From Chloroflexota bacterium (lineage in GTDB: Bacteria > Chloroflexota > Dehalococcoidia > UBA2247 > RBG-13-53-26), in contig VGOM01000003.1 of assembly GCA_016875915.1 (NCBI GenBank), positions 66,716-130,715 on the forward strand: a stretch of DNA of 64,000 bases, read 5' to 3'. The first letter of the stretch is position 1. Every line of letters begins with the position of its first letter. Positions 1,404-26,426 of the stretch are shown one piece after another. The notes beneath the pieces were generated by a model. The model ran no database searches and had not been told where the DNA came from. It worked only from the letters and a program-made list of their open reading frames with translations. Made by a program: the position numbers and the translations under genes.

Positions 1404-1486
1404 CCGGGCTGACGATGCCATCGGGGACGTGTCCTACTATCCATTCCTGGAGAAAGCGTTGAGGCTGGTCTGAGGAGGAGTTGGAG

Positions 1487-2266: not shown

Positions 2267-2343
2267 GAGTCACCAGCCGTGCGCGCCCAGGAAGCGAGCA
2301 TCCCCGGACCGAACGAGCTTCCGGCGCTTGTCAGTGCAAGGGT

Positions 2344-3783
2344 CTACGGCTGCGAGGCCATCAAGTTCCGGTGATACCGGATGAACCTGTCGATGGCCTT
2401 GGCCGCGCTGGGGATGGAGTGGTAGACGGTCAGGCCCGCCTCGTAGAAGTCCTTGACGTACTTGGCCGCGAAGTGCCATCCCTCCCCTGTGGCCATGTAG
2501 TGCGCCACCACCGCCATGGGCATGGCTGACTCGCGGTGCAGCCTGATGATCGTCTCCGTCTCGCGGTCGATCAGGATGGGAGCCACGGCCAGCGACAGCA
2601 TGATTCCTCTGATGGGCAGATGGAAGACCAGCAGGTCGATCCCCTGGAACTGACCCAGCTTGGTTAGGGCGTGGCGGAACACCTCATGGCCGAAGCCCAG
2701 GTGGGGGATATCCACGGGGTTGCTCAGGATGGTTCCCGCGTCGTTGCCTAGGGCATCCCTGAAGGCCTGTCTGATGTCATCGGGCAGTTGGGGAAGGACG
2801 AAACCCGCCCTGTCCCAGTCGTCGGTGGCAAGGACCCCCGCCCCTCCCCCCACCCCGGCCATGGCCAGCCTCTTTCCTCCTAGAAGGGGCATGTACTGGA
2901 GGGTGACCAGCATGTCCGCCATCTCGTCCAGGTCGTTCACCCTGATGGCCCCGGCCTGATCCAGGGCCCTCATCCACAGGTCGTGTGAGCCCGCCAGAGA
3001 GGCGGTATGGGAAGCGGCCACCCTGGCCCCGGCACCCGTGGTGCCTCCCTTCAGGACGACCACCGGCTTGACCGCCGCCAGTTCCTGAAGGACGCGGTAG
3101 AAGCGCCGCCCGTCCTTCACTCCCTCGATGTAGGCGGCCACCACCTTGGTCTCCGCATCCTGGTGGAGATACTCCAGCAGGTCCGTTTCATCGATGTCGC
3201 AGGCATTTCCATAGGAGATCACCTTGTTGAACCGGATGCCCCTAGCCCCGGCCGCCCGCACCAGGTACATGGTGTTGCCGCCGCTCTGGCAGATGAAGGA
3301 CACCGGACCGGTCTCATGGGGCAGATCGGGGGCAAAGGAGAAGCCGGCCTTGGGGGAGTGTATGCCCAGGCAGTTGGGGCCGATGACCCGCACGCCGGTT
3401 GACTGAGCCAGACGCTGCACCCCCATCTCCAGTTGCCTGCCGGTCTCTGTTCCGAATTCGGCGAAGCCGGAGGTGAACAGGCAGACGGCCTTGGCCCCCT
3501 TGGCCGCCGAGTCCTTGATCAACTGGGCCACGAAGGGGGCTGGAATGCAGGAGATGACGTAGTCCACTGCCTCGGGGATGTCACTTAGGTGGGGGTAGAT
3601 CTTCAGCCCCAACACCTCGCCGCCCTTGGGGTTGACCAAGTGGATCTTGCCCTTGAATCCGTACTCGATGATGTGATTCAGGAACAGCCGCCCGGTGTTG
3701 AACCCCTCGTCGCCCGGGGCGACGCCGACGATGACCACGGACCGCAGGTTGAAGACGGCATCCAGAGCTTCGTTCTTGTTCAT
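2344..3783 (-). CDS. acyl-CoA synthetase (NDP/ADP-forming) alpha subunit-like, paralog 1
   Basis: CoA-binding N-terminus (NLRSVVIVGV), succinyl-CoA-synthetase-like flavodoxin domain, phosphohistidine motif HTASLAGS. Start ATG 3783 chosen by alignment to the paralogs. Confidence 0.75.
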   Translation of the reverse strand: MNKNEALDAVFNLRSVVIVGVAPGDEGFNTGRLFLNHIIEYGFKGKIHLVNPKGGEVLGLKIYPHLSDIPEAVDYVISCIPAPFVAQLIKDSAAKGAKAVCLFTSGFAEFGTETGRQLEMGVQRLAQSTGVRVIGPNCLGIHSPKAGFSFAPDLPHETGPVSFICQSGGNTMYLVRAAGARGIRFNKVISYGNACDIDETDLLEYLHQDAETKVVAAYIEGVKDGRRFYRVLQELAAVKPVVVLKGGTTGAGARVAASHTASLAGSHDLWMRALDQAGAIRVNDLDEMADMLVTLQYMPLLGGKRLAMAGVGGGAGVLATDDWDRAGFVLPQLPDDIRQAFRDALGNDAGTILSNPVDIPHLGFGHEVFRHALTKLGQFQGIDLLVFHLPIRGIMLSLAVAPILIDRETETIIRLHRESAMPMAVVAHYMATGEGWHFAAKYVKDFYEAGLTVYHSIPSAAKAIDRFIRYHRNLMASQP

Positions 3784-3844
3784 TCCTTGAATCCCCGCCC
3801 GCGGGCACTGGCTATCCGCCGCGGACGCTGCTCCTGGCGAAGCC

Positions 3845-5278
3845 TCAGCCGGTCTTGCCCGCTCTCTGTCTCGCCTCGTGGTAGCGCAGGAAGCGGTCGA
3901 TGGCCTTGGCCGCGCTGGCCATGGAGTGGAAGACGGGCATGCCCGCTTCACTGCAGCCCCGCTGCAGGTCCAGGGCCTTCTGCCAATCCCAGTTGGTGAT
4001 CAGGAACTGCAGGACCAGGGCCAGCGGCTTGTCCGTCTCCCTGTGGATCCTGGTCACGAAGTCCCGGAACTGGTTGATCTCGATCTCGAAGGCGGACGAG
4101 GAGAACCAGGCCGCCTGTCCGAAACCGGCGTGGATCAGTCCCAGGTCGAAGCTGTCGCCGCTGCTGTAGCTCAGCAGCCTCTTCACCACGTCATAGAAGC
4201 TCTGGCTGTAGCCCACCATGGACAGGTCGATGGGATTCTTGAAGATCATTCCGGCGGTATTGCCGAACAGCTCCATCAGCTCCTTGATCAGCTCCGGCGG
4301 CAGCCTGGGCAACGTGAAGCCGGCCATGGTCAGCTCGTCGGTGGCCAAGACGCTGGCTCCTCCGCCGCCTCCGAAGACGCCCACCTTCCGTCCCCTGGGC
4401 AGGGGGAGCAGGGCGAAGGTGACCAGCAGATCGACCATCTCCTCCAGATTGCCCACGCTGATGGCTCCCGACTGCTGGATGAGGCTGTCCCACACCTCGG
4501 CGGAGCCAGCCAGGGAACCGGTGTGCGATGCGGCGATCTCTCCCCCGGCTCTGGTGTAGCCTCCCTTGAGGACCAGGACGGGCTTGACCGCTGAAAGCCT
4601 GGACAGCACCCGGTGGAACCGCTCACCGTCCTTGATCCCCTCGATGTAGGCCGCCACGATCTCCGTCTCGGGATCGTGGGCAAGATACTCCAGGAGGTGG
4701 CTCTCGTTGATGTCGCAGGCGTTCCCGTACGAGACCGCCTTGCTGAACCTGACCCCTCGCTGACTGGCTGCCCGGATGAGGTAGGAGGTGTTGCCGCCGC
4801 TCTGGCCGATCAGGGCCACCTTGCCCACCCGTCGGGAGAAGTCCGAGGCGAACGACAGCCCCACCTTGGGCGAGTAGACGCCCAGACAGTTGGGCCCTAC
4901 GATCCTGATCCTCGAAGCCTGGGCGATGCGGACGATCTCCCGTTCCAGATCCCTGCCCTCCTGGGTCCCCGTCTCCGAGAACCCTGAGGTGTAGATGGAG
5001 ATGGTCTTCACTCCCTTGGCGGCGCAGTCCCTGACCAACTGGGGGACGTGGGGGGCCGGGATGCAGCATATGGTGTAGTCCACGGGTCCCGGGATGTCCT
5101 TGACGTTGGTGTAGGCCAGCAGCCCCGAGACCTCCCCGCCCTTGGAGTTGATGGCGTAGATGGGCCCCTTGAAGCCGGAGGTGCGGATGCTGTCCAGAAA
5201 CCACTGCCCCGACTTCCCCGGAGAAGCGCCGGCGATGGCGATGGACGTTGGGTAGAAGATGGGGTCAAGCGATCCCAT
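3845..5278 (-). CDS. acyl-CoA synthetase (NDP/ADP-forming) alpha subunit-like, paralog 2
   Basis: IAIAGASPGK, HTGSLAGS and ligase-CoA domain; 477 aa. Confidence 0.8.
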   Translation of the reverse strand: MGSLDPIFYPTSIAIAGASPGKSGQWFLDSIRTSGFKGPIYAINSKGGEVSGLLAYTNVKDIPGPVDYTICCIPAPHVPQLVRDCAAKGVKTISIYTSGFSETGTQEGRDLEREIVRIAQASRIRIVGPNCLGVYSPKVGLSFASDFSRRVGKVALIGQSGGNTSYLIRAASQRGVRFSKAVSYGNACDINESHLLEYLAHDPETEIVAAYIEGIKDGERFHRVLSRLSAVKPVLVLKGGYTRAGGEIAASHTGSLAGSAEVWDSLIQQSGAISVGNLEEMVDLLVTFALLPLPRGRKVGVFGGGGGASVLATDELTMAGFTLPRLPPELIKELMELFGNTAGMIFKNPIDLSMVGYSQSFYDVVKRLLSYSSGDSFDLGLIHAGFGQAAWFSSSAFEIEINQFRDFVTRIHRETDKPLALVLQFLITNWDWQKALDLQRGCSEAGMPVFHSMASAAKAIDRFLRYHEARQRAGKTG

Positions 5279-5351
5279 ATCGGCCTCCTCGACAACAGGC
5301 GGTTGAGACTGGAGCAGAGCCGGAGGACGGGCTCACCGGGGGCGGTCCTGG

Positions 5352-6794
5352 CTAGTCAAAGCCCCGTGCCCGCCGTCTCTCATGGTACCGGATGACGTGA
5401 TCGATGGCTCTGGCCGCACTCGTCATTGAGTAGTATACAGGTATCCCCGCTGCGGCGCAGCCCTGTTGCAGGTCTTCGATACTCTTCTGCCAGTCCCAGC
5501 CGGTGATGAGGTACTGCATCACCAGCGCCAGGGGCTTGCCCGCCTCGCTGCGAATCCTGGTCACAGCGTCCTTGAAGGAGTTGATCTCAGCGTCGAAGAC
5601 GGAAGTGGAGAACCAGGCGGCCTGCCCGAAACCGATGTGGATTACCGACAGGTCCACGAAGCCCTCATAGATGAGCAGTCGCCTGATCAACTCATAGAAC
5701 CGATCGCTGTAGGCGAAGGACGAGAGGTCAAGGGGATTGTTCAGGATCAGGCCTGCCTCGGTAGGCACGGACCTCCTGATCTCCTCCCCGATAGCCTCTG
5801 GGAGCGGCGGCAGCACAAATCCATGCCTGGACCAGTCATCGGTGCCCAGCACTGTTGCCCCGCCCCCCCCGCCGAAGATGCCCACCCTTCTCCCCTGTGG
5901 CACCGGAAGGAGAGAGAGGGTGACTAGGACATCAACCAGTTCCTCCAGGCTGTAGACGCGGATGGCCCCGGCCTGTTGCAGCAGCCGGTCCCAGACCTGG
6001 TCCGAGCCGGCTAGGGAGCCGGTATGCGAGGCCGCTGCCTTGGCACCGGCGCCGGTATGTCCTCCCTTGAGGACGACCACGGGCTTGCGGCAGGCCAGCT
6101 CCGTCAGCACCTGAAAGAACCGCTGTCCGTCTCTCACCCCCTCGATGTAGATGGCCACTGTCCGGGTCTCCGCGTCCCCGGCGAGGTACTCCAGCAGGTC
6201 GCTCTCCCCGACGTCGCAGGCATTCCCGTAGGAGACCACCTTGCTGAACCGGATGCCCCTGTAGGTAGCCGCTCTGGTGGTGTAGACGGAGTTGCCGCCG
6301 CTCTGGCAGATGAAGGCCACATCGCCGCTCTCCATGGGGAAGTCCGAGGTATATGTGAATCCCACTCTGGGGGAGTAGACCCCCAGGCAGTTCGGGCCCA
6401 CCACCCGAACCCCGGTCTCCCTGGCCGCGCGCGACACTTCATCCTCCAGCCGCCTGCCCTCTTCGGTGCCGCTTTCGGAGAAGCCGGCGGTGAACACGGA
6501 GACCGCCTTGGTCCCTTTGGCGGCGCATTCCCTGATCAACTGGGGCACCGCCGGTGCCGGGATGCAGCAGACGACGTAGTCTACATGGCCGGGCACCTCG
6601 CCCAGGCTGCGGTAGGCCTTCAGGCCGGAGATGCTCTCCCCCTTGGAGTTGATGGCGTAGATCTGCCCTTTGTAGCCGGAGGCCAGGAGGCTGTCAAGGA
6701 AGAGCTGCCCCGGCTTCCCTGGGGAGGCCCCTGCGATGGCCACCGATCTGGGGTTGAACAGTGAATCCAAGGAGTCGTTCCCCTTGGTCATCAA
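5352..6794 (-). CDS. acyl-CoA synthetase (NDP/ADP-forming) alpha subunit-like, paralog 3
   Basis: NPRSVAIAGASPGK, HTGSLAGS; 480 aa. Confidence 0.8.
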   Translation of the reverse strand: MMTKGNDSLDSLFNPRSVAIAGASPGKPGQLFLDSLLASGYKGQIYAINSKGESISGLKAYRSLGEVPGHVDYVVCCIPAPAVPQLIRECAAKGTKAVSVFTAGFSESGTEEGRRLEDEVSRAARETGVRVVGPNCLGVYSPRVGFTYTSDFPMESGDVAFICQSGGNSVYTTRAATYRGIRFSKVVSYGNACDVGESDLLEYLAGDAETRTVAIYIEGVRDGQRFFQVLTELACRKPVVVLKGGHTGAGAKAAASHTGSLAGSDQVWDRLLQQAGAIRVYSLEELVDVLVTLSLLPVPQGRRVGIFGGGGGATVLGTDDWSRHGFVLPPLPEAIGEEIRRSVPTEAGLILNNPLDLSSFAYSDRFYELIRRLLIYEGFVDLSVIHIGFGQAAWFSTSVFDAEINSFKDAVTRIRSEAGKPLALVMQYLITGWDWQKSIEDLQQGCAAAGIPVYYSMTSAARAIDHVIRYHERRRARGFD

Positions 6795-6806
6795 GTCGTT
6801 TTCCTT

Positions 6807-8687
6807 CTAGCTGTGCAGCGGTATGGCGTCGGGCGGTGACACCCGTATCACCGCATCGTACTCTGGCGGGCAGACCATCTGGCAGTTGCCGCACTTGACG
6901 CACTTGGTCTGATCGATGATCTTGATCCGCTTCTCGTCGCTTCTGATGGCTTCCGCAGGGCAGGTGAGCACGCAGTGCTCGCAGCCCCTGTCGCACTTGT
7001 CGGGGAGGATGTAGTAGGCGATCAGCTCCTTGCACACCAGCGCCGGGCAGCGCTTCTCAAGGATGTGGGCCTCGTACTCATCGCGGAAGTAGCGGACGGT
7101 GGTCAGAACCGGATTGGGCGCCGACCGCCCCAGGCCGCACAGTGAGCCCTCCCGGATGTCCCGGGCCAGTTCGATGAGCAGGTCCATGTCCTCCATCCTG
7201 CCCTTGCCGGCCGCGAAGTCGGCCAGGATGTCCAGCATCTGTTTCGTTCCCAGGCGGCACATAGTGCATTTGCCGCAGGATTCCTTCTGGATGAAGTCCA
7301 GGAAGTACCGGGCGGCATCCACCATGCAGTTGTCCTCGTCCAGGACGATCATGCCCCCGGAGCCCATCAGGGAGCCGGCCTTGGTCAATGAGTCGAAGTC
7401 AACGGGTGTGTCCAGCAGGCTCTCCGGCAGACATCCCCCGGAAGGGCCGCCTATCTGCACCCCCTTGATCCTCTTGTTCCTCGGCACGCCGCCCCCCACC
7501 CCGAAGATGAGGTTGCGCAGGCTGGTGCCCATGGGCACTTCGACCAGGCCGGTATGGGCGATCTTGCCCGCCAGAGCGAAGACGGCCGTTCCCTTGCTGC
7601 CCTCCGTACCGATGCCGGCATACCATTCCGCCCCCCGGTCGAGGATCATGGGTATGCTGGCGAAGGTCTTCACGTTGTTGAGCAGGGTAGGTTTGCCCCA
7701 CAGGCCTGATTCCACCGAGTGGGGCGGCCTCACCCTGGGCATGCCCCGCTTGCCTTCTATGGAGTACATCAGGGCGCTGGCCTCACCGCAGACGAAGGCC
7801 CCGGCCCCCTCGGCAACCTCTATGTGAAAGCTGAAGCCGCTGCCCAAGATGTCCTTCCCCAGGAATCCCGCCGCCTCCGCCTGTTTCAGGGCCAGACTGA
7901 AGCGCCTCACGGCCAAGGGGTACTCATCCCGGACGTAGATGTAGCCCTGTGGCGCGCCCATGGCGTAGCCGGCGACGATCATCCCTTCGATGACTGAATG
8001 AGGATCGCTCTCCAGCAGTGCCCGGTCCATGAAGGCGCCGGGATCGCCTTCGTCGGCATTGCAGATGACGTACTTCGGCCGCCCCGGGGCGTTGTGGCAC
8101 ATCTCCCACTTGACCCCGGCGGGGAAGCCGGCCCCCCCTCGTCCCCTCAGCCCGGACCGTTTGATCTCGGAGATGATCTCTGCTGGTGCCATGCCCAGGG
8201 CACTGACCAGGCTGCCGTATCCGCCGCGGCTGACGTAGTGATCGATGCTCTCGGGGTTGATGTTACCGCAGTGGCGCAGGATGTGCCGCAGCTCGTGTTC
8301 AAACCGGGGCAGCTCGGGAATGGACGGGGCCATGCCCTCGGCCACTTCGAAGGTGCCCAGGGCCAACTCCAGGCAGGGGTCGTCGCCGGCTACGTAGCCC
8401 TCCACCAGACGGCGGACTCTGTCCGTGGTGGTGTTGCCATAGCACACGCTGAAGCTGTCTGGCTTGACGATGACCACCAGGGGCTCGGCGTAGCACAGGC
8501 CCATGCACCCCACCGGGACCACGGGAGCGTCAATGCCCTGCCTCCGTATCTCGGCCTCAAAGGTCCTGGCCACGTCCAGAGCGCCGGCCGCCCGGCCGCA
8601 GGTGGCCGTGCCGATGAGGACGTGGGTTTTGCGCTGCAGTGCCTCCCACTCTGAGATGGCCCGGTGCTTGATATGATCGAAGGTCAT
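6807..8687 (-). CDS. NuoF-like NAD(P)H-binding flavoprotein subunit. It carries an N-terminal thioredoxin-like [2Fe-2S] domain and C-terminal 2x[4Fe-4S], like HydB/HndC/FdhB.
   Basis: GRGGAGFPAGVKW FMN/NADH site; CGKCTMCR; C-terminal CxxCxxCxxxCP x2. Confidence 0.85.
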   Translation of the reverse strand: MTFDHIKHRAISEWEALQRKTHVLIGTATCGRAAGALDVARTFEAEIRRQGIDAPVVPVGCMGLCYAEPLVVIVKPDSFSVCYGNTTTDRVRRLVEGYVAGDDPCLELALGTFEVAEGMAPSIPELPRFEHELRHILRHCGNINPESIDHYVSRGGYGSLVSALGMAPAEIISEIKRSGLRGRGGAGFPAGVKWEMCHNAPGRPKYVICNADEGDPGAFMDRALLESDPHSVIEGMIVAGYAMGAPQGYIYVRDEYPLAVRRFSLALKQAEAAGFLGKDILGSGFSFHIEVAEGAGAFVCGEASALMYSIEGKRGMPRVRPPHSVESGLWGKPTLLNNVKTFASIPMILDRGAEWYAGIGTEGSKGTAVFALAGKIAHTGLVEVPMGTSLRNLIFGVGGGVPRNKRIKGVQIGGPSGGCLPESLLDTPVDFDSLTKAGSLMGSGGMIVLDEDNCMVDAARYFLDFIQKESCGKCTMCRLGTKQMLDILADFAAGKGRMEDMDLLIELARDIREGSLCGLGRSAPNPVLTTVRYFRDEYEAHILEKRCPALVCKELIAYYILPDKCDRGCEHCVLTCPAEAIRSDEKRIKIIDQTKCVKCGNCQMVCPPEYDAVIRVSPPDAIPLHS

Positions 8688-8700
8688 CTGCGGGGTGAGA

Positions 8701-9207
8701 CTACTTGCTCTGGGATGGTCTGCCGGCCTCGGTCTCCTTGAGTCCGGCCAGGACCTCTTCCACCTTGAAGGGTGTCATCCTGGGGTGTATCTCTTCGCCG
8801 ACCACCACCACCGGGGCTAGGAAGCAGCAGCCGATGCAGGCCACCCTGTCCAGGCTGAACTCCCCGTCGTGGGTGATATCCCCCACCTTGGCCCCCAACT
8901 CCCTCTCCAGGGCGTCCAAGACCAGGGCTCCTCCGGCCATGTGACAGGCTGTGCCCATGCAGGCCTTCACCGGGTGTTTGCCTAGCGGCGTGAAGCGGAA
9001 GCGATTGTAGAACGTGGCCGTGCCGTAAACTGAGGCGGCCGGGACCCGGGTGAAGTTGGCCGCCTCCAGCATAGCCTCCCGAGGCAGGTAGCCGAACTCA
9101 TCTTCAGCCTCCTGCAGGATCCGTATCAGCTCCACCCTCTCCGGTTTGTGGCGGCTGAGTATGTGCCTCAGCTGCGCGGTGATCTTCCTGGAATCGGCGT
9201 GCTTCAT
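8701..9207 (-). CDS. NuoE-like [2Fe-2S] thioredoxin-like subunit
   Basis: CMGTACHMAG...CIGCCFLAPV cysteine pattern. Start chosen at MKHADS; this ATG overlaps the upstream stop as ATGA. Confidence 0.7.
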   Translation of the reverse strand: MKHADSRKITAQLRHILSRHKPERVELIRILQEAEDEFGYLPREAMLEAANFTRVPAASVYGTATFYNRFRFTPLGKHPVKACMGTACHMAGGALVLDALERELGAKVGDITHDGEFSLDRVACIGCCFLAPVVVVGEEIHPRMTPFKVEEVLAGLKETEAGRPSQSK

Positions 9208-9611
9208 ACCCGGCTGCAGATCTCCGGCGGATTCTCCACCGTCTCCTTCACATATCGTACCATATGGTTCAGGCACGCCACGGTGAGCTCGACGAGGTCT
9301 TCGCCGCGGATCTTCTTGATGTTGCCGCCCGAGTAGAGGACCCTGACGCTGCTGGGGAACTCCTCGTCGGCGCGGGTGTACAGGAAATGGATTCGGATGC
9401 CCGGGAAGAACTCCTTCCTCATGCCCCAGTGCTCACCCAGGCCCAGCGACTCCACCTCGGCCCCGACGAACCCGGCCAGCCCGGAGACGTCGTCCACCCG
9501 GTCCAGAGCCTCCTTCCGCAGATCCGCCTCTCTCTTGATGAAGGCATCATGGGGGGTGAGCGGCCCGTCGATCTCCTTGATGCTGACCAGCCTCTTGTCC
9601 TTCAGCCCCAT
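9204..9611 (-). CDS. hypothetical protein (~135 aa) embedded between cooC and nuoE-like
   Basis: ORF with GAGGTG RBS. Composition is protein-like; no family recognised. Confidence 0.45.
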   Translation of the reverse strand: MGLKDKRLVSIKEIDGPLTPHDAFIKREADLRKEALDRVDDVSGLAGFVGAEVESLGLGEHWGMRKEFFPGIRIHFLYTRADEEFPSSVRVLYSGGNIKKIRGEDLVELTVACLNHMVRYVKETVENPPEICSRV

Positions 9612-9639
9612 TCCTCCACCTCGGCCGCCCGGTCTGCGG

Positions 9640-10395
9640 TTACAGGCCAACCCTGTCGATCAGTTGAGTCACCCCTGTTCGCAGGGGCGAGTCCTGAGGC
9701 AACTGGGTCGTCGGCAGGCCTTTGACCTCCAGTTCCGCCAGGTTGGGGTCCTGTCGTATGGTGGCCATCAGCTCGAAGTTGTACTTGTTGATCGTCTCCT
9801 CGATCTCCGGAGGCAGGCCGTTGAGGGAGCGGTTGACCACCAGGCAGACCTTGCCCACGCTGGTTCGCAGTTCCCTGACGAGTGACTTCATGGCGGCGGC
9901 GGTTCTGATCCCTCTCTGGGTGAGGTCGGAGACGATGAGCAGTATGTCCACGTCCCTGGTCGTCTGGCGACTGATGTGCTCCATGCCCGCCTCGCTGTCG
10001 ATGACCACGTAGCGGTAGTTCTGGCCCAGCTTGTCGATGGACAGACGAAGCATGTTGTTGGCCGCGCAGTAGCAGCCGGGCCCCTCGGGGCGCCCGATGG
10101 CCAGGAGGTCGAATCCCTTGTATTCGTCCAGGGCCGCCCGTATCCTGCCGTCCAGGTACTCCTGTTTGGACAGGGTGGGACTGAAGGCCCCGGTCTGCAC
10201 CGACTGGCTCATCTCCTCGCGGATCCGGCCCACGGTCTCCCCAACGGGCACGCCCAGGGCCTGATTCAGGTTGGTGGCCGGGTCCGCGTCGATAGCCAGG
10301 ACCACCCCCTTCTGCGAAAGGAGATGGACCAGCAGGGCAGAAATAGTTGTCTTGCCGGTCCCCCCTTTGCCGGCAACGACAACTGTGGTGGTCAT
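9640..10395 (-). CDS. cooC: CO dehydrogenase nickel-insertion ATPase CooC/AcsF
   Basis: P-loop VAGKGGTGKTT; MinD/ParA fold with CxC; operon context. Confidence 0.85.
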   Translation of the reverse strand: MTTTVVVAGKGGTGKTTISALLVHLLSQKGVVLAIDADPATNLNQALGVPVGETVGRIREEMSQSVQTGAFSPTLSKQEYLDGRIRAALDEYKGFDLLAIGRPEGPGCYCAANNMLRLSIDKLGQNYRYVVIDSEAGMEHISRQTTRDVDILLIVSDLTQRGIRTAAAMKSLVRELRTSVGKVCLVVNRSLNGLPPEIEETINKYNFELMATIRQDPNLAELEVKGLPTTQLPQDSPLRTGVTQLIDRVGL

Positions 10396-10404
10396 GCTGT
10401 CGAC

Positions 10405-11772
10405 CTACTTCTTGAGGTTTGCGGCGAAGCCCGGCAGGAAGGCCGGGATCTCGCTGGCCTCCCTGGGGCCGACAACGATCTCCCAGCCGGGGAGGGCCTC
10501 CCCGAGTTCGCCCCTGATCCGGGCGGTCAGTCCAGGGATGATCAGCTTCCGGGTCTTGGTCCGGCCTTCAATGCCGCACTTCCTGACGAAGGGGGCGATG
10601 CTGTCGCCGGTGAACTTGCCGGCGGCCCAGCCGGTGAGCACACCCAGCCCCTCGGTGTCCTTGACCAGGAGGTAGGAAGCCACCTTGCTCCCCTCGATCT
10701 CGGAGCTGACGATGAAGTAGGTCAGGGCCCAGTTTGAGGTGATCAGGACCGGGGAGTCCTCAGTGGGCGTGCCTATGTCATATACCTTCTCTTCCACCGA
10801 CAGCGGCATGCGCGGATCGGTGAAGATGTTGAGACGCTGCACCAGAAGCGGCAGCAGCGAGTGCTGATCGAAGTCGGAGAGGACGGTGATGGCGGCGAAC
10901 TTCACCACGAATGCGGAGGCGGCCAGCGCCTCCTTCAGCCCGCCCTTGGCCACAAAGCATGGGAAGGATATGGTTGGATAGCCCAGCGGCCGGAAGTTCT
11001 GCTTCACCGCCGCCCTGCGGATGAAGGTCTGGTCTCGTATTCCTTCCGTGAGGTTCTTGGAGCCGGGGTCCAGGACCAGATCATCGATCTTCTCTGCCTT
11101 CAGCTTGGTGGTCAGTGGAACAAGTTCAGCGATACTGGAAGCCTTGACTCCCAGAGGGGTTGGCGACTGCTTCACCCTGGGAATCACGGCGTCGATGTTC
11201 TCTTTGGTGATGGGATAGAGGAGCGGCTTTCGGTCGCCGCAGACGTCCCTGGCGGCGAACAGGGTCTCAACGTCGGTGCAAATGAGGACCAGCCCGGCAT
11301 CGGTGCTCGCGCATACCTTCTTCACCAGGGCCAGGTACTTGGCCTTGTCCCCGGATTCGTGTTGCAGGGCTATCAGGTCGGCCTTTAGCTTCAGCCCGAC
11401 CCTCTCGAACTGGATGTCTCTGACCTTCTTGATCTTGGCTTCTGCAACAGCATCGGAATCCTTGTCAGAGATGAGGATGGCTATGGCCGTGGGATGGAAG
11501 TAGGTCTTCTCATGCCGGTAGATCACCTCTTCGTTTCCGATCTGCACGGCGTTACTCCCGGCACCGATAGTGACCAGCTTGATGGCCGGCGCCAGGGCAT
11601 CCTCAAGCTCTGCCTTCACCTCAGCCGTCAGGTAGGGGCACTTGTCCAGCGTAGCTCCCCCTGAAGCCAGCTTCATGGCAAAGGCGAAACAGGTGGGGAA
11701 ACCGCACTCCTTGCAGTTCTTCTTCCCTGCTTCGGGCAGTCTCTTGACAACGTCGGTTCCTTTGATGGGCAT
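10405..11772 (-). CDS. cdhE: corrinoid iron-sulfur protein large subunit, CdhE/AcsC (gamma)
   Basis: N-terminal [4Fe-4S] motif CKECGFPTCFAFAMKLA...CPY, then a TIM-barrel/corrinoid domain; 455 aa. Confidence 0.9.
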   Translation of the reverse strand: MPIKGTDVVKRLPEAGKKNCKECGFPTCFAFAMKLASGGATLDKCPYLTAEVKAELEDALAPAIKLVTIGAGSNAVQIGNEEVIYRHEKTYFHPTAIAILISDKDSDAVAEAKIKKVRDIQFERVGLKLKADLIALQHESGDKAKYLALVKKVCASTDAGLVLICTDVETLFAARDVCGDRKPLLYPITKENIDAVIPRVKQSPTPLGVKASSIAELVPLTTKLKAEKIDDLVLDPGSKNLTEGIRDQTFIRRAAVKQNFRPLGYPTISFPCFVAKGGLKEALAASAFVVKFAAITVLSDFDQHSLLPLLVQRLNIFTDPRMPLSVEEKVYDIGTPTEDSPVLITSNWALTYFIVSSEIEGSKVASYLLVKDTEGLGVLTGWAAGKFTGDSIAPFVRKCGIEGRTKTRKLIIPGLTARIRGELGEALPGWEIVVGPREASEIPAFLPGFAANLKK

Positions 11773-11812
11773 GCTGAATCCTCCTCTATCTCAATGCAGT
11801 CCTATTCCGCAC

Positions 11813-13033
11813 CTAGATTGGCAGCTCTACCTCACCCTTTATCCAGGGGTGCCCCACCTTCTCCAGGAAGGCGGGAAGTTGGTCAACGGTCTTGACATCC
11901 TCTTCGCTGGCTATCTTGTCGTACAGGTCTGCCGGGATGACATCCTTGTAGCGTTCCTTGATGGCCTTGGGCATCCAGACTACTCTGCGCAGTCCGCCGT
12001 CTGCCTGGAAGAACTTCGGCGATCTGATCAGTTCCAGGGCCAGTCCGCAGGAACCCTCCACCTGTCTGCCGCCGGACGTTACCCCGGCCATCTTGGAGAA
12101 GGCCTCGCCGAGCAGCGTCGGCCCGACGAAATCCCTGTGGACGATGCCGAAGGCATCCACTTCTGGGATGTAGAACAGAATAGCCTGGAAGCAGCCACAG
12201 GAGGTGTGGGGGTGCTCAAAGGCGCTGTGGAGATAGACCCGATTGTATTCCCCCAACGATCTCTCGGCGACGCACTGATTGCAGCCACTGTATTCCCCCC
12301 TGCCGGGGTCCAGCAGTTCACCCTTCTCCACTCCGAAGATGGGACCTTCGGGATCCAGCTTGTAGGCCGCCTTGCCGTCAAACCAGTTGATGGCGCCGCA
12401 GTTGGCGATCCGCTCTGGAGTGATCACACAGCAGTGGGTGGGGGCGAAGCTCTGGCACAGGACGCAGCCGTAGAAGAGGTCCACGTCTTCTTCTCTCAGA
12501 CCCTTCAGCCTCTCATCCCTGGCCTCGTAGACCTTGAGGGCTTCGGCCAGCAACTCCTGGACCTTCTTCTCATCGGTGACCAGGGTGATCGATATCTTCT
12601 CGATGGCAGACAGCTCCGAGGTGTAGAGGAAGATCAGAATGTCCCCTACCTCCTTCAGGGAGTTGAGACCCTTCTTGAAGGAGGCCTTGCTCAACCTGAT
12701 CCAGACGTCGTTTCTCTGGTTCATGTGATACACGCCCTCTATGTAGTTGGCGTACATGTGCATCCGCCTCTCGATCACCGGCTCCATGTCCTTCTCTAGG
12801 GCCTCACCGGCGATATTGATCAGGATGGCTATGGGGTAGCTGGACCCCTCCGGCATATCCTTGATATCAGGTCCGATGACCTCCACCTTCTCGTGTTCGA
12901 TCTCATCGGGATTCTTCAGCGTCACCAGTTCGAACTTGGCCTTTGCCTTTGGACCGCCAAACTCGACCTGCATGTCCTCTTTGCGGATCACCTCGCCTTC
13001 ATACTGGGGCCCGATATCGACGTGAAACTCCAT
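11813..13033 (-). CDS. cdhC: acetyl-CoA synthase catalytic (A-cluster) subunit, archaeal-type CdhC (beta), short form of 406 aa
   Basis: A-cluster Cys-Gly-Cys (SCGCFQ) and upstream Cys ligands; operon context. Confidence 0.8.
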   Translation of the reverse strand: MEFHVDIGPQYEGEVIRKEDMQVEFGGPKAKAKFELVTLKNPDEIEHEKVEVIGPDIKDMPEGSSYPIAILINIAGEALEKDMEPVIERRMHMYANYIEGVYHMNQRNDVWIRLSKASFKKGLNSLKEVGDILIFLYTSELSAIEKISITLVTDEKKVQELLAEALKVYEARDERLKGLREEDVDLFYGCVLCQSFAPTHCCVITPERIANCGAINWFDGKAAYKLDPEGPIFGVEKGELLDPGRGEYSGCNQCVAERSLGEYNRVYLHSAFEHPHTSCGCFQAILFYIPEVDAFGIVHRDFVGPTLLGEAFSKMAGVTSGGRQVEGSCGLALELIRSPKFFQADGGLRRVVWMPKAIKERYKDVIPADLYDKIASEEDVKTVDQLPAFLEKVGHPWIKGEVELPI

Positions 13034-13034
13034 C

Positions 13035-13580
13035 CTATCCTTCCTCCTTCAATTTGGATACCAGGGTTTCCAGGAAACTCTTCCACTCCTCGTCCTTCCT
13101 GAAGTTCGGGAGTGAGAAATCAGCATTGGGGAACACGTATTTGCAGAGAGTCATGGTCTTCAAGTGGGGCGCGAAGTGCTTCAGAGTGGAGAGGCCCTGA
13201 TTCCCGAGGTCTGTCCTGATTCCGAAGAAGACCACCAGGTCGTGGTTGCCCTCCTTCCTGACGCCCTTCCAATCAGGATCCTTGAGGCGGTTGATTATCT
13301 CGACGACGTCATACTCGCTGTCGGGCTTGACCCCCAGTTCCATCATCTTGGCCCTGATGTGTGCCGTGGCGCATATCGGTGCCTTGGACGCCTTGGCTAT
13401 CTCCAGTGCGTATTCGACGAGGGACTTCCCGTCAAGGCAAGTGCCCAGCAATCTGGGGCCGAGCACGAATAGTGGTCGCTTCGCCCGCTTGATCGTGTCG
13501 GCAAACTCGGCAGCCTCGGTCACTACCTTGGCTCCCTTTGTCCCGGTTAGGACGTTGACCCTGTGAAGTGGCATCACCAT
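13035..13580 (-). CDS. cdhB: CODH/ACS epsilon subunit CdhB
   Basis: ~180 aa, positioned between cdhA and cdhC; typical CdhB size and composition. Confidence 0.7.
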   Translation of the reverse strand: MVMPLHRVNVLTGTKGAKVVTEAAEFADTIKRAKRPLFVLGPRLLGTCLDGKSLVEYALEIAKASKAPICATAHIRAKMMELGVKPDSEYDVVEIINRLKDPDWKGVRKEGNHDLVVFFGIRTDLGNQGLSTLKHFAPHLKTMTLCKYVFPNADFSLPNFRKDEEWKSFLETLVSKLKEEG

Positions 13581-13652
13581 AGCACTCGGTCCTCCTCGGT
13601 TGTCGACTCATGGCGTGTCGCGCGAATCATCAGTCTGCCCCCGTCACATTCC

Positions 13653-15965
13653 CTAGTGGATCACTGCTTCCAGAGGCACCTTGGTGGGATATGTGCCAAT
13701 CAGTGTGGGCAGGCTCAGAACGGGCTTGGGCTTCCAGCCGATCTCCTTGAGGTAGGTCAGTACCTCCTTCTTGTACACGATGGGGAGGTCCTTGTCGGTC
13801 CGGACATAGTGCTGCAGGTCCTCAGGCAGTCCGCTTCCCATATGCTTCTTGTACAGGGAGATGTAGTGATTGAGCTTGATCGCCCTGCCCTGCGGGGTGT
13901 CGTTCTTCCTGATACACAGCTTGGCGATGGTCACCATGGCTCGTTCCTTCGATTCCGTGACGTACACCAGGTGTTCTGGTGAAGGCTCCTCCGTGTCCAC
14001 GATTTCCCGTTTTCGCCCGTCCATGACCTTCCAGTCATCCTCGCCCTTCTTGCTGAGGTACAGTCTCCGGTATTTTGAGGAGTGAGGGCCGAGCAACACC
14101 GGGATGCCCATGCGGTTGCAGCCCGTGGCGATGGTGGCTGCCTTCTGGGAGTAGGCTCCCCAGGCCACTCCGCAGGCGCCCACGCGGTTGAGGATGTAGT
14201 CGGCGATAACCTCGTAGTTGCCCCTGAGAGGGAGGGTGGCGAAGATGTTGGCGATCTTTATGGCCGCCCCGGTGATGTGGGCATTGGCTACGCAGGAGCC
14301 CACGTTCACAACTCCTCCTGCGTCGAAGTTCCCCGGGAACCTCTCGTAGATCGTCTTTCCCTCGGCATCCTTCTTCATACCGGCCACCATAGCGGCGCAG
14401 CCGCTCATGACCACGATGTACTTCCTCTTGGCGAACTCCTCTGCCATCTCTACGATGTCGTCCACATCGGGGTAGTTGGAGCAGCCCACGAAGGCCACTA
14501 CCCCGGGGATGGTGCCGAGCACGATGGGGGCCCCGACGTTCCTGATCTCCGTGTCCATGATCGGGCCGCGTCCCGCCCTGACCTTGAAAGTATCGGTGCC
14601 GGCGACTGCCTGCATTATTCTCATTATGGGGATCTTGCGCGGGCAATCCTGATCGCACTTCCCACAGCCAATACACTCGTCAACCATCTGCCGCAGGGGC
14701 TCGAAATTGCCTTGCCCGGCCTGCCTTATCCCAGTCCCGATAGACATCAGGTTGGGACAGGCCCTCTCGCATATCTCGCATTCCCGACATGACTTGGCCA
14801 GCTCCTGGGCTTCCTTCTCGTCGAGGAGGTGCTTCCGTCTCTGTGGAGCCAGCTTCAGGGCCACCTTCACCGCCACCTCCCCGGCCTTCTCGTGGTCCAG
14901 GATGAGGTACTGCTTTCCTTCCTCGACCACCTTCTTCACGATCTCGTCGGCATCCATTTCGGTGGCGTCCTCGAAACCGTAGCAGGCCTTGTCCGAGGTG
15001 GCAATCATAGCGGTGCCCACCTTCTTGGCCTCTATGCCTACGTCAGTCCTGATGCACTGTTCATCCGTGACGATGACATCAGCTATCCCGGTCCTGACGT
15101 AGTAGAGCTGTCTGGAGAGCGGCCCGATCACCTTCGCCTTGTCGGCATATCTCGTGGTCTCCAGAGCGGTGCAGCAGATCCCGCCAACCTCCACCTTGTC
15201 GTACAGGTCGTTCTTGCGGAGATGGTCGATGATGTTCGTCGAGGTGGCGGGGTTGTGGCCGATGACCAGTATCGTCGGCTTGGCGATGTCCACACACGAG
15301 ACCCCAGCGTCGATCAAAGGCGTATCGGCAACCGAAGTTGGGTACTTGAAGCCGGTGATCTGGGCTATGTCGGCGGCTTCCATGACCACATGGTCCAGCA
15401 TGCCGGCATGAAGCGCCTTTGACTCGTAGTCCAGATTGCTGCCCTCCTGCCCCGTATTGAGGGCGGAAACCAGGTGGATCAGCTCACGTTCCGCGTATTC
15501 TACGGCCGTTCTCAGATCTGCCAGTGTCTCCGGCTTCAGGCCCAGCACTGTCCTGATGTTGGGGGCCTCAACGGCGACGTTGTCTCCCAGGTTGATCTTG
15601 CAGTCCTCGCCATGCTTCTCGATGAGGTAGTCGATGATATGCCGGGCATGGCCACCGTGGGCGGCCAGTCCCATACAGCAGGCCAGGAGCACGATCCTTC
15701 CCTGTTGACCGGCGATATCGATGCCGCAGGCTCCTCTCTTGCCCGCGGTGAGGTCGCACTTGCCGTAGGTGCAGAAACAGCACAGGTCGCAGAATGGTGC
15801 GTACCACGGAGCGTAGGTCTTCAGGAGCCTCATATCCCAGTTTCGCAGGTCGGCCACGTCTGGCATCGGCGTGGCGCCGATCGGCTCCCAGTTGTCTTCC
15901 GCCCTGATGATCTTCTCGATTTCCTTGCGTTTCTTGGTCTTCTTGTGTTCCGCTGTTTGCGTCAT
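13653..15965 (-). CDS. cdhA: carbon monoxide dehydrogenase catalytic alpha subunit CdhA (archaeal-type, with inserted ferredoxin domain)
   Basis: 770 aa. N-terminal Cys cluster CDLCCFCTYGKCDL; HcpC/CooS fold motifs; internal 2x[4Fe-4S] (CRECEICERACP, CIGCGKCDQDCP). Confidence 0.9.
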   Translation of the reverse strand: MTQTAEHKKTKKRKEIEKIIRAEDNWEPIGATPMPDVADLRNWDMRLLKTYAPWYAPFCDLCCFCTYGKCDLTAGKRGACGIDIAGQQGRIVLLACCMGLAAHGGHARHIIDYLIEKHGEDCKINLGDNVAVEAPNIRTVLGLKPETLADLRTAVEYAERELIHLVSALNTGQEGSNLDYESKALHAGMLDHVVMEAADIAQITGFKYPTSVADTPLIDAGVSCVDIAKPTILVIGHNPATSTNIIDHLRKNDLYDKVEVGGICCTALETTRYADKAKVIGPLSRQLYYVRTGIADVIVTDEQCIRTDVGIEAKKVGTAMIATSDKACYGFEDATEMDADEIVKKVVEEGKQYLILDHEKAGEVAVKVALKLAPQRRKHLLDEKEAQELAKSCRECEICERACPNLMSIGTGIRQAGQGNFEPLRQMVDECIGCGKCDQDCPRKIPIMRIMQAVAGTDTFKVRAGRGPIMDTEIRNVGAPIVLGTIPGVVAFVGCSNYPDVDDIVEMAEEFAKRKYIVVMSGCAAMVAGMKKDAEGKTIYERFPGNFDAGGVVNVGSCVANAHITGAAIKIANIFATLPLRGNYEVIADYILNRVGACGVAWGAYSQKAATIATGCNRMGIPVLLGPHSSKYRRLYLSKKGEDDWKVMDGRKREIVDTEEPSPEHLVYVTESKERAMVTIAKLCIRKNDTPQGRAIKLNHYISLYKKHMGSGLPEDLQHYVRTDKDLPIVYKKEVLTYLKEIGWKPKPVLSLPTLIGTYPTKVPLEAVIH

Positions 15966-15968
15966 GTC

Positions 15969-16874
15969 CTACCCCTGTTTGATGGTTTCTCTTACCAGCT
16001 TGAGTGTCTCGGGATGTCTCAACACCACCAGGTTTGCCCCGGCTAGGAGGAGGGAGATGGCGGTCATTCCTTCCCAGAGTATGCCCTGCTCCTTGTTCTC
16101 CTTGGCCTCCTTGGTCTTCCAGCACTCGCCTGCCACGTCGGCGATGATCGGCATCTGTGTCTGGGCGTCCTTGAAGATGACCCCGGTCTGCTTCGTTCTC
16201 TCCATGATGGTGAAGGTGTATTCCATGCCATACCCCAGGGCTGAACTCAGGGGGTCAATGACGACCCTGTCAGCGGGGAAGACCTTGGACAGTTTGATGT
16301 TCAGCTCTTTCATCAGGTTGATGTCCAGCGGGCTCTGAGCGATTATGGCATGGCCATTCTCTGCCGCAGCCTTGGCGATCACCTCGTAGTTCTCCTTCAC
16401 CACCGGGCCGAGGAGCAGGTTTTCGCCCTTGCACACTTCAGCCACCTTGGACAGCACCTGGGCGTCCTTCTTGTCGTCCTTTGACCCGCAGACGATCAGC
16501 GGTGCTCCCACTGCATCAGCCACCTTCTTGACCAGCTGTGCTGCTCCCTCTGCTGGGGCATTCTTGCCCGCCGGGTCGGTGCTCTCCAGTACCAGACAGA
16601 TGGCGTCCGCTCCATAGTCCAGGCACTTCTTGGCCCACTTGACGGGATCGGATATCACGTCTTGGAACGGTTCCAGGACCCACTTGGCCCATCCCTCTGG
16701 CGGTGAATCGAAGACTTGGAGGGCGAACTTGGGCGGGTTGGGTATGGAGCCCTCGTCGAAGAAATGGAAGGGGAGGGCATTCTCCCCGCCTATCTTCAAA
16801 GCCTTGGGGCCTTTGCCGATGGCAACCTCTCTGACCTTCCCGGTGTATGACTCGACTGCTGCTTTGTACTCCAT
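15969..16874 (-). CDS. cdhD: corrinoid iron-sulfur protein small subunit CdhD/AcsD (delta)
   Basis: 301 aa TIM-barrel protein directly upstream of cdhA; N-terminus MEYKAAVESYTGKVREVAIG resembles AcsD. Confidence 0.85.
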   Translation of the reverse strand: MEYKAAVESYTGKVREVAIGKGPKALKIGGENALPFHFFDEGSIPNPPKFALQVFDSPPEGWAKWVLEPFQDVISDPVKWAKKCLDYGADAICLVLESTDPAGKNAPAEGAAQLVKKVADAVGAPLIVCGSKDDKKDAQVLSKVAEVCKGENLLLGPVVKENYEVIAKAAAENGHAIIAQSPLDINLMKELNIKLSKVFPADRVVIDPLSSALGYGMEYTFTIMERTKQTGVIFKDAQTQMPIIADVAGECWKTKEAKENKEQGILWEGMTAISLLLAGANLVVLRHPETLKLVRETIKQG

Positions 16875-16900
16875 AGTCTGTCCCTTCTCCTTTCCTGTCT

Positions 16901-17815
16901 CTAGTCCTCCAACCAGGAATGGGAATATAGCGTCTGCCCCAGGAGGATCTGGGCTGTCTTCACATAGTCACGCTGCTTCTTGGAGAGGCTCGAGAGTACG
17001 ATATGTTCCTCGTCCATTGCCTTGTGGATGAGTTCGATGATGTCAGGCATCTTGCCCTGGTCTAGAGCCATTAGCTCCGCATCCAGGGGGTCGGCGATGG
17101 CGGAGTACAGTCCGTTTCGTTTCAGCATCATCAGGTAGGTGCGGTTGATGATCCCTCTGAGTTCCTCGGGTGTTCCATTGGACACATTTGAAAGGCCCAC
17201 TGTGGATTTGATGTCAGGCAGGATATCAGGCAGTATCTTGATGAACTCCAGGTCCGCGGTCACCTGTGTCTGGTCCGCGCTCACTGGCAGTACGATCGGA
17301 TCGACCCAGATGTCCTCGTTGGGGATGCCCAGTTCGTTGGCGTAGGCCACCGTGTCCAGGATGCTCTCTGTCCTCGATTCCACATCAGGCGGGCAACCCT
17401 TGTCTGTGAGCACTGACAGGACCACGGCAGTGTTGTACTTCTTGGCTAGGGGCAGCGTCTTCTCCTTGCTGTCGGTTCGCCCTGACGCCGAGTTGAGCAG
17501 TGGTCTCTTCTTGCTGGCCTTCAGACCTGCCTCCATGGCGATGGGATTCAGGGTATCTATCGACAACGGCAAATCGGACACGGCCTGCACGGTGTTCACC
17601 AGCCACTCCACGGTCTCCTCGGGGTTCTTCCTCGCTGGACCTATGTTCAGGTCCAGGTAATCCGCGCCTGCCTTGGTCTGAGCTATGGCCAGATCCTGGA
17701 TTACCTTGGCGTTTCTCTCCTTCACTGCTGTGGAGACTTCCTTGGAGATGATGTGGATATTCTCACCGATGATGATCACTGAGTACCTCCTTGCGTATTC
17801 TGAATGGCACGCCAA
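16901..17815 (-). CDS. acsE: methyltetrahydrofolate:corrinoid/iron-sulfur protein methyltransferase AcsE (pterin-binding, MtrH-like)
   Basis: 304 aa. Pterin-binding barrel motifs IIGENIH and DYLDLN; first gene of the operon. Confidence 0.85.
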   Translation of the reverse strand: MACHSEYARRYSVIIIGENIHIISKEVSTAVKERNAKVIQDLAIAQTKAGADYLDLNIGPARKNPEETVEWLVNTVQAVSDLPLSIDTLNPIAMEAGLKASKKRPLLNSASGRTDSKEKTLPLAKKYNTAVVLSVLTDKGCPPDVESRTESILDTVAYANELGIPNEDIWVDPIVLPVSADQTQVTADLEFIKILPDILPDIKSTVGLSNVSNGTPEELRGIINRTYLMMLKRNGLYSAIADPLDAELMALDQGKMPDIIELIHKAMDEEHIVLSSLSKKQRDYVKTAQILLGQTLYSHSWLED

Positions 17816-21704: not shown

Positions 21705-21707
21705 CCT

Positions 21708-25674: not shown

Positions 25675-26415
<741 letters not shown>

Positions 26416-26426
<11 letters not shown>

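Follow-up and report, generated by a model that had tools for sequence, protein, structure and literature searches.

The 64,000-nt stretch of DNA analyzed here (hereafter the window), from contig VGOM01000003.1 of the Chloroflexota assembly GCA_016875915.1, carries 13 co-directional genes on the minus strand, running from position 17779 down to 2344, that were identified by matches to Pfam and NCBIfam. They encode a CO dehydrogenase/acetyl-CoA synthase (CODH/ACS), a CooC-like ATPase, a DUF3786 protein, two subunits resembling NuoE and NuoF, and three alpha subunits of ADP-forming acyl-CoA synthetases (ACD). The explanation that we favor for the whole, with confidence about evenly balanced, is one operon of a hybrid archaeal/bacterial CODH/ACS with the NuoEF-like pair, here termed BfuBC, as its dedicated electron module, together with three ACD alpha subunits. 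Judging from synteny and domain content, BfuBC is best read as a module that would link the hybrid CODH/ACS to both NAD(H) and ferredoxin; this is the most economical explanation because the hybrid CODH/ACS is the only constant partner of the pair. The features of the operon, in the direction of transcription, are as follows.

17780-18162, minus strand: upstream intergenic region, 383 nt, non-coding; extended -10 box TGCTATAAT at 18073-18065, so that the leader upstream of acsE measures about 286 nt
16901-17779, minus strand: acsE-like gene for a methyl-tetrahydrofolate:corrinoid/Fe-S protein methyltransferase, 292 aa, also 292 aa in the metagenome gene call; Pfam Pterin_bind, E 3e-18
15969-16874, minus strand: acsD, short delta subunit (301 aa) of the bacterial corrinoid/Fe-S protein (CoFeSP) small-subunit type; passes the short-form model NF003376
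13653-15965, minus strand: cdhA, archaeal-type Ni-CODH alpha subunit, 770 aa; TIGR00314, 1080.8 bits (cut-off 781.3)
13035-13580, minus strand: cdhB, epsilon subunit; TIGR00315, 125.8 bits (cut-off 101.2); Pfam CO_dh, E 7e-30
11813-13033, minus strand: cdhC, short archaeal-type acetyl-CoA synthase (A-cluster) subunit, 406 aa; TIGR00316, 593.8 bits (cut-off 355.95)
10405-11772, minus strand: acsC, gamma subunit, the large subunit of CoFeSP; NF003195, 564.7 bits (cut-off 306)
9640-10395, minus strand: cooC-like P-loop ATPase gene; Pfam CbiA, AAA_31 and ArsA_ATPase
9204-9611, minus strand: short DUF3786 protein, 135 aa with only 2 Cys; matches just the C-terminal part of Pfam DUF3786, with 28 bits
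8701-9207, minus strand: bfuC, NuoE/HydC-like [2Fe-2S] subunit, 168 aa; Pfam 2Fe-2S_thioredx, E 3e-43
6807-8687, minus strand: bfuB, NuoF/HydB-like subunit for flavin mononucleotide (FMN) and NAD(H), 626 aa, with an N-terminal thioredoxin-like and a C-terminal 2x[4Fe-4S] domain
5352-6791, minus strand: acd1, NDP-forming acyl-CoA synthetase alpha subunit, 479 aa; Pfam CoA_binding_2 and Succ_CoA_lig
3845-5278, minus strand: acd2, second ACD alpha paralog, 477 aa, sharing 61% identity with acd1
2344-3783, minus strand: acd3, third ACD alpha paralog, 479 aa, sharing about 50% identity with both acd1 and acd2; last gene

By its matches the CODH/ACS is of the hybrid six-subunit type, acsE-acsD-cdhA-cdhB-cdhC-acsC, in which CdhABC are of archaeal type and the corrinoid protein and methyltransferase of bacterial type. 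This assignment follows because CdhA, CdhB and CdhC pass the archaeal models, AcsD fails the archaeal cdhD model (TIGR00381, 211 bits against a cut-off of 252.9), AcsC and AcsD match bacterial CoFeSP and an AcsE-like gene is present. CdhA carries an inserted 2x[4Fe-4S] domain (Pfam Prismane, with Fer4 at residues 379-445), and its best PDB matches are the alpha chains of archaeal acetyl-CoA decarbonylase/synthase (ACDS), 8riu_A, 9c0q_A and 3cf4_A, with E values down to 3e-253. CdhB is an epsilon subunit, otherwise exclusive to archaea. CdhC has the archaeal beta chain 9c0s_E as its best PDB match and aligns to residues 319-724 only of bacterial AcsB, whose N-terminal domain it lacks. The best PDB matches of AcsD are the small subunits of bacterial CoFeSP (2h9a_B, 4djd_D), nearly full length with E 2e-79, and those of AcsC are the corresponding large subunits (4djd_C, 2h9a_A; E 1.5e-115). 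CdhABC and AcsCDE stand together in one cluster in the published order, with AcsE scoring 236 bits against NCBIfam PRK07535 and 189 bits against CODH_ACS_meth, both under cut-off. Compared with Methanosarcina CdhABCDE (PDB 3cf4, 9c0q-9c0t), the alpha, epsilon and beta subunits are clear orthologs, passing TIGR equivalog cut-offs, but the delta subunit is the short bacterial form rather than a long CdhD and a folate-type AcsE is present. An initial annotation of this DNA had called the enzyme the archaeal five-subunit type, which describes the insert of CdhA, the presence of CdhB and the short CdhC correctly but not the delta subunit or the methyltransferase. Archaeal ACDS, moreover, relies on ferredoxin and has no NuoEF-like genes encoded with it.

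Hybrid six-subunit enzymes are known from Chloroflexi RBG_13_51_36 (a Rifle metagenome-assembled genome, MAG), Ca. Desulforudis audaxviator, NPL-UPA2 Unc8 and a Hakuba actinobacterium (PMC6305446, PMC7325909); both papers cite Adam et al. 2018. The window shares with them the same subunits (CdhABC plus AcsCDE) and, with the first of them, a Chloroflexi lineage, and its gene order is that reported for the Hakuba single-cell genome. Suzuki et al. described a nuoEF set close to the hybrid cluster in NPL-UPA2 Unc8 (PMC6305446), the published accounts treat nuoEF as a neighbor that possibly regenerates NADH (PMC6305446, PMC7325909), and NuoE/F/G-type COGs are listed among the gene contexts of Wood-Ljungdahl-type CODH (PMC6344411). 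In contrast to these clusters, the window has its pair within the operon itself; the pair belongs to the BfuBC type, and its linkage is near-universal in the sampled clade. The tandem ACD alpha genes are not part of the published descriptions. In the openly searchable literature we found only passing mentions of a Chloroflexi CODH/ACS-BfuBC enzyme (PMC3971608, PMC6305446, PMC6344411). The claim that the layout is not canonical was nevertheless overstated, as the hybrid cluster has been published, nuoEF has been mentioned nearby and the arrangement is common in Dehalococcoidia metagenomes.

The NuoE- and NuoF-like subunits were recognized correctly as homologs, but they are of the Bfu type, BfuC and BfuB, and not of complex I. 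We rejected the pair as a complex I fragment, since it scores under the Nuo cut-offs, has extra domains and is accompanied by no other nuo genes among the window open reading frames (ORFs) scanned. BfuC lies under the cut-offs of all true NuoE models (136 bits against 141 for the best of them) and BfuB under that of NuoF (TIGR01959, 470 bits against 558.65); the match to complex I NuoF is limited to the central residues 120-546 of BfuB. The best PDB matches of BfuB are instead B chains from bifurcating enzymes, which align to BfuB residues 20-608 (E 1e-180 to 5e-219): NfnABC (9bov_B, 9n5u_B), NiFe-HydABCSL (7t2r_B), Stn (8oh5_B) and HydABC (7q4v_B, 8a6t, 7p5h_B). Alignments to 9bov_B, 9n5u_B and 7t2r_B show conservation of GLRGRGGAGFP, NADEGDPGAF, ESCGKCxxCR and SLCGLG, in which the FMN/NAD(H) motifs and the B1 [4Fe-4S] motif can be read. 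Also conserved as read are the N-terminal thioredoxin-like cysteines (B2), a C-P-A-x-x-C site and the C-terminal 2x[4Fe-4S] clusters (B3, B4), with Pfam Fer4 at residues 559-610; by our own assignment, the C-P-A-x-x-C site is probably B5. The BfuC translation has the cysteine pattern C-x4-C ... C-x2-CC of the C1 [2Fe-2S] cluster. The closest homologs of BfuB all come from Dehalococcoidia or Chloroflexi MAGs.

For Schut et al., the BfuBC core is what defines the Bfu family, and non-bifurcating homologs are described as lacking the extra cluster domains (PMC9304861, PMC11829005). All the domains by which bifurcating BfuB differs from the NuoF of complex I or of Hox type are present in the BfuB of the window. 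On the strength of its motifs and domains, the NuoEF-like pair is identified as the BfuC/BfuB core of this electron-bifurcating family, sharing with NfnABC and HydABC (PDB 9bov, 7t2r, 7q4v, 7p5h) the sites and domains of BfuB and the [2Fe-2S] motif of BfuC. The PDB matches and alignments thus uphold the earlier suggestion that the NuoF-like protein is of the bifurcating or confurcating kind. In another reading, BfuBC is a plain non-bifurcating diaphorase that exchanges electrons between ferredoxin and NAD(P)+ next to the CODH, or that passes CO-derived electrons straight to NAD+. The FMN and NAD(H) motifs and ferredoxin-like domain of BfuB would suit such an enzyme, no third-substrate subunit is encoded with BfuBC in the window, and for orphan NuoEF operons in related genomes, all that Hug et al. 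could suggest was regeneration of NADH (PMC3971608). However, BfuB retains N- and C-terminal cluster domains that are missing from the non-bifurcating complex I, Hox and FdsB (PMC9304861), and the closest solved relatives of BfuB are all bifurcating, so that we consider a plain diaphorase quite improbable.

No BfuA- or NuoG-like gene was found in the 64-kb window, either by tblastn with a mini-BfuA from a related locus (L087) or by Pfam on the window ORFs scanned, and the scan of these ORFs likewise gave no formate dehydrogenase (Fdh) or hydrogenase gene. Formally, BfuBC without BfuA would fit only the predicted BfuA-less type 4 class of the family, most members of which have no identifiable third substrate (PMC9304861). 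As in type 4 enzymes, for example the predicted Rub-Bfu, no BfuA is encoded alongside; as in type 2 Codh-Bfu, the implied third substrate would be CO/CO2 (PMC9304861). Codh-Bfu as described combines a CooS-type CODH with BfuA and is confined to Firmicutes, whereas the partner proposed here, in Chloroflexota, is a CdhAB of archaeal type that forms part of a complete ACS. For the type 4 members described so far, the link is to rubrerythrin or to nothing identifiable (PMC9304861); here the gene order points to CODH/ACS.

The association of BfuBC with CODH/ACS was examined in both directions. A genome scan with the BfuB protein, in which loci with at least 64% BfuB identity were counted, gave ten loci, nine of them labeled Dehalococcoidia, Dehalococcoidales, Chloroflexi or Chloroflexota and one Deltaproteobacteria. 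Each of the ten is part of a CODH/ACS cluster or, in the case of L013, is truncated immediately upstream of one; acsC is included in seven, and L014 retains only the 3' end of acsC, followed by bfuC-bfuB. An independent reverse scan used metagenome contigs anchored on acsC (66-75% identity). Among those with at least 1.7 kb of downstream sequence, bfuC was found no more than 3 kb from acsC in 59 of 61, and bfuB was present in 37 of the 39 loci with at least 4.5 kb. The exceptions are L100, which is short of flank, and L104, in which a Bfu set lies between cdhA and cdhB instead. Two gene orders recur: that of the window, acsC-cooC-DUF3786-bfuC-bfuB, and a commoner one, acsC-bfuC-bfuB-cooC-DUF3786. 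Because the position of the pair varies while it stays in the operon, bfuC-bfuB appears to have been retained through rearrangements, and the link between the NuoEF-like genes and CODH/ACS proposed in the initial annotation is not accidental.

The BfuB proteins encoded after acsC form one similarity group, 60-87% identical, in which the nearest neighbor of each is another member; this grouping was taken from an identity matrix and is not a phylogeny. Firmicutes BfuB homologs from the same scan are at most 58% identical to the CODH-linked group. A second, divergent set, bfuC'-bfuB'-mini-bfuA, occurs between cdhA and cdhB in L087, L102, L104 and L154, and apparently in the partly covered L007. 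Its mini-BfuA, 211 aa, is NuoG/HoxU-like and has no catalytic domain. L087 is a 1.84-Mb contig whose BfuB is 79% identical to that of the window; its second set occupies positions 1397-5098, and bfuB' was called there as two genes.

The space between cdhA and cdhB varies in other ways as well. The second Bfu set also holds a 202-aa unknown protein, missing in L104. In L118 a DUF166 gene at 7484-8182, which resembles the DfsP (seleno)protein model but scores under its cut-off, lies between cdhA and cdhB. A cdhA-cdhB gap of about 745 bp, like that of L118, is seen in 17 other loci, which suggests the same DUF166 gene there, the gene content having been checked in L118 only. The window operon has no DUF166 gene at this place.

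In the mechanism that we propose, a CdhA2B2 CO dehydrogenase and the CdhC A-cluster subunit would work with the AcsC/AcsD corrinoid protein and AcsE, and the BfuBC core would supply FMN, an NAD(H) site and a ferredoxin-facing 2x[4Fe-4S] domain. The Fe-S chain of CdhA, or an interface with CdhB, would substitute for BfuA, and the CO2/CO step would be tied jointly to NAD(H) and ferredoxin. During synthesis NADH and reduced ferredoxin would converge on CO2; in the cleavage direction electrons would be split between NAD+ and ferredoxin. The couple of acetyl-CoA with methyl-tetrahydrofolate and CO2 lies near -200 mV; with such a couple, confurcation would save reduced ferredoxin during synthesis, and the splitting of electrons would ease acetyl-CoA cleavage. 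A coupling of BfuBC to CODH, whether physical or functional, is something we infer from sequence, as are bifurcation, the direction of flux and the substrates of the ACD subunits. A link of both pyridine nucleotide, as had been suggested, and ferredoxin to CODH/ACS is plausible and is better supported by the comparisons above than it was by the window sequence alone. Generalized, the mechanism would make the CODH/ACS of a large Dehalococcoidia clade itself a flavin-based bifurcating or confurcating enzyme, with a BfuA-less BfuBC docked on CdhAB and with NAD(H) and ferredoxin used together; we put this forward tentatively, as a possibility that falls somewhat short of probable.

Several points weigh against this role of BfuBC. 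The CO2/CO couple, at about -520 mV, lies below the average of NADH and ferredoxin, so that confurcation onto CO2 would work only if exergonic acetyl-CoA formation pulls the reaction. The first ferredoxin motif of BfuB is an unusual C-x3-C, one residue longer than C-x2-C, and the beta subunit that the ACD genes need is missing locally (see below). The CODH-linked BfuB group is not sharply separated, since its closest member shares 61% identity with a BfuB paralog from Dehalococcoidia that is encoded beside FdhA. Every characterised Bfu enzyme feeds electrons through BfuA, and the BfuA-less type 4 is a prediction (PMC9304861, PMC11829005). Finally, some relatives carry a mini-BfuA (L087, L014) or a NiFe hydrogenase after bfuB-cooC (L089), so that the partner may differ between lineages or lie elsewhere in the genome.

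L089 is a more distant relative in which most of the Wood-Ljungdahl pathway is strung together at 11902-21905, in the order acsC-bfuC-bfuB, cooC, a NiFe hydrogenase (small subunit, large subunit and HycI), two DUF5981 genes, MTHFR, a full-length DUF3786 gene, a second bfuC-bfuB and FdhA; this FdhA has a NuoG-like N-terminus.

The dependence of characterised enzymes on BfuA, the hydrogenase genes of L089 and the FdhA-adjacent paralog, which in L089 is a 58%-identical BfuBC, all lend support to the main rival explanation: BfuBC would be only co-regulated with the Wood-Ljungdahl genes and would work with a BfuA-type partner in trans, a formate dehydrogenase or hydrogenase, to provide the pathway with formate or reduced ferredoxin instead of docking on CODH/ACS. 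We judge this unlikely, though the other rivals are weaker. The Fdh of L089 already has a BfuBC of its own, the window encodes none of the partners required, and the mini-BfuA of relatives could not provide catalysis, lacking the domain for it. Several operons also stop after bfuB or cooC-DUF3786 without another redox enzyme: in L118 the genes beyond bfuB are on the opposite strand, the only further same-strand genes in L141 and L122 are those for CooC-like ATPases and DUF3786, and no further redox enzyme is encoded downstream in the operon in any of the three. Co-regulation alone can hardly account for Bfu sets placed between cdhA and cdhB; the same "sandwiched" argument has been applied to Codh-Bfu (PMC9304861). 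For that system of Firmicutes, with its CooS-type CODH and BfuA, Schut et al. proposed that bifurcation could exploit very low CO activities (PMC9304861).

The gene order of L014, acsC-bfuC-bfuB-mini-bfuA followed by genes for a methyltransferase, a corrinoid protein and RACo, raises a further alternative, that BfuBC re-reduces corrinoid Co(II) to Co(I), replacing or assisting the RACo activator, and does not act at the CO2/CO step. The window operon has no RACo gene, which speaks for this alternative. Activation is, however, an occasional repair that would hardly need a stoichiometric two-subunit flavoprotein, L014 itself has the Bfu genes alongside RACo, and there is no precedent for such a function, which makes it very improbable.

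The gaps between the genes, from acsE to acd3, are 26, 3, 72, 1, 40, 9, 28, -4 (an ATGA overlap), 13, 15, 73 and 61 nt, so that the earlier description of gaps of 1-40 nt or ATGA overlaps applies to most of them, although three (72, 73 and 61 nt) are longer. A GGAGG-like site precedes most of the genes. The start of acsE is most likely the GTG at 17779, preceded by an AAGGAGG ribosome-binding site, and not 17815, which had been given as the operon boundary; acd3 starts at 3783, not 3951. A consensus scan of both strands between 1400 and 19000 found 4 terminator-like sites against 10.3 expected from shuffled sequences, and the only one on the minus strand is within acsD. The gene downstream of acd3 is convergent. 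Because of the gaps, the few terminator-like sites, the upstream non-coding region and the convergent downstream gene, the natural reading is that the 13 genes form one transcription unit and are probably co-transcribed. The TGCTATAAT box upstream of acsE is promoter-like and presumably acts as the promoter. An Rfam scan of the whole window gave no match to a riboswitch or leader RNA before acsE, and the leader of about 286 nt could contain an undescribed regulatory element.

The initial annotation's gene count and homology calls (Cdh, AcsE, NuoEF, ACD alpha) held up throughout the profile searches. The G+C content of third codon positions (GC3) of the 13 genes is high, 0.75-0.90, as for real genes in a 64% GC genome, and metagenome contigs with an identical CdhC, from the water column of Lake Tanganyika, carry exactly the same genes by independent gene calls. 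We take the operon to belong to a Dehalococcoidia-like bacterium (Chloroflexota) of this lake. The CODH/ACS block (10001-18000) is less GC-rich than the rest of the window (0.57-0.61 against about 0.64), has a strongly negative AT skew and has a GC3 of 0.75-0.81, compared to 0.83-0.90 for bfuB and the acd genes. This composition could reflect a foreign origin or expression-linked codon use.

Between acsC and bfuC lie cooC and the gene that had been left as an "unknown ORF", which Pfam shows to be a short DUF3786 protein. Its stop codon overlaps the bfuC start (ATGA). cooC adjoins DUF3786 in relatives, a conserved position, and DUF3786 travels with it. The CooC-like ATPase is presumed from its family to be a nickel-insertion chaperone, and the two proteins are likely maturation helpers. 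A single-sequence AlphaFold2 model of the DUF3786 protein was unusable (pLDDT 45).

The three genes that complete the operon appear from their matches to be bona fide alpha subunits of ADP-forming acyl-CoA synthetases, the best PDB matches being the archaeal ACD alpha subunits 2csu_A and 4xyl_A. Their pairwise identities of 61%, 51% and 49% mark them as old paralogs, and all 4 ACD alpha paralogs of the window keep the SHTGS histidine (H256) without exception. Like the ACD of Pyrococcus and Thermococcus (2csu, 4xyl), they are separate alpha subunits of 460-480 aa with an SHTGS-type histidine, several paralogs and no adjacent beta gene. Unlike them, they belong to a bacterial host, in which fused alpha-beta forms are common, and three stand in tandem inside a CODH/ACS operon. 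Against TIGR02717 (acetate-CoA ligase alpha) the four alpha subunits score 327-378 bits, acd1 being highest at 378, all under the cut-off of 567; the acetate-forming ligase of the initial annotation is thus unproven. They would convert acyl-CoA to the acid through a phosphohistidine, with acetyl-CoA a likely substrate for at least one.

ACD alpha genes recur in both operon architectures, in about nine metagenome loci and in L007, L013, L087 and L088, with positional orthologs of acd1-3 in L087 that are 77-81% identical; most relatives have none, and the ACD link, though recurrent, is confined to this subset. We searched for the beta subunit by tblastn and with a hidden Markov model (HMM) of our own, using as probes the non-alpha regions, taken as the ATP-grasp beta part, of five fused ACD. 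Neither search detected an ATP-grasp beta subunit or domain in the 64-kb window, and 2.5 Mb of related loci gave only one weak match, in L012, which contradicts the idea of a self-contained module. Because alpha subunits alone cannot phosphorylate ADP, the beta subunit must be encoded elsewhere, and ATP would be formed through it. Several alpha subunits of Thermococcales share an unlinked beta subunit, which we take to be the same arrangement.

A second acyl-CoA module, again without a beta subunit, occupies 24598-29817. It includes genes for a 2-oxoacid:ferredoxin oxidoreductase (POR_N/PFOR_II, 24598-25674; thiamine pyrophosphate-binding subunit, 25671-26420; gamma subunit, 26416-26946), an ACT-domain protein (27009-27440) and a fourth ACD alpha gene, acd4 (28228-29817), 36% identical to acd1-3. 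Both acd4 and the 246-aa ORF beside it (27460-28200) are on the strand opposite to the oxidoreductase genes. This ORF was considered as an ACD beta subunit and rejected, having no Pfam or PDB match and a membrane-protein-like sequence.

Elsewhere in the window, a minus-strand gene at 57942-58826 fuses an MtrA-like domain (tetrahydromethanopterin S-methyltransferase subunit A) to the same "putative Fe-S cluster" domain with which AcsC begins. It scores above the cut-off of the NCBIfam subfamily NF002126, adjoins genes for an SBF-family transporter and a PadR regulator, and may encode a corrinoid protein. Other genes encode an H+-pyrophosphatase (38212-40374), an 860-aa protein without Pfam match (45915-48497), an EFR1-family flavodoxin-ferredoxin fusion (49377-50237), a BaiCD/OYE-like Fe-S flavoenzyme that scores under cut-offs (52375-54378) and a collagen-repeat protein (55629-56297).

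What appears not to have been spelled out before is that a BfuA-less Bfu core is almost obligatory in the hybrid CODH/ACS operon of this clade; the variants with an extra Bfu set between cdhA and cdhB likewise appear to be new. How anaerobes near the thermodynamic limit pay for reduced ferredoxin is a central question of their bioenergetics, and reduced ferredoxin is assumed to be all that drives the carbonyl branch of the Wood-Ljungdahl pathway. The gene content of the CODH/ACS-BfuBC operon hints at a putative further way of powering the pathway. If BfuBC is indeed the electron module, part of the reducing power could come from, or go to, NAD(H), which would change the predicted ATP yield of abundant Chloroflexota of the subsurface and of lakes and would help to explain the spread of a hybrid archaeal/bacterial enzyme among bacteria. 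It would also provide work on the Bfu family with a natural test case that lacks BfuA, in a compact operon of cdhAB and bfuBC.

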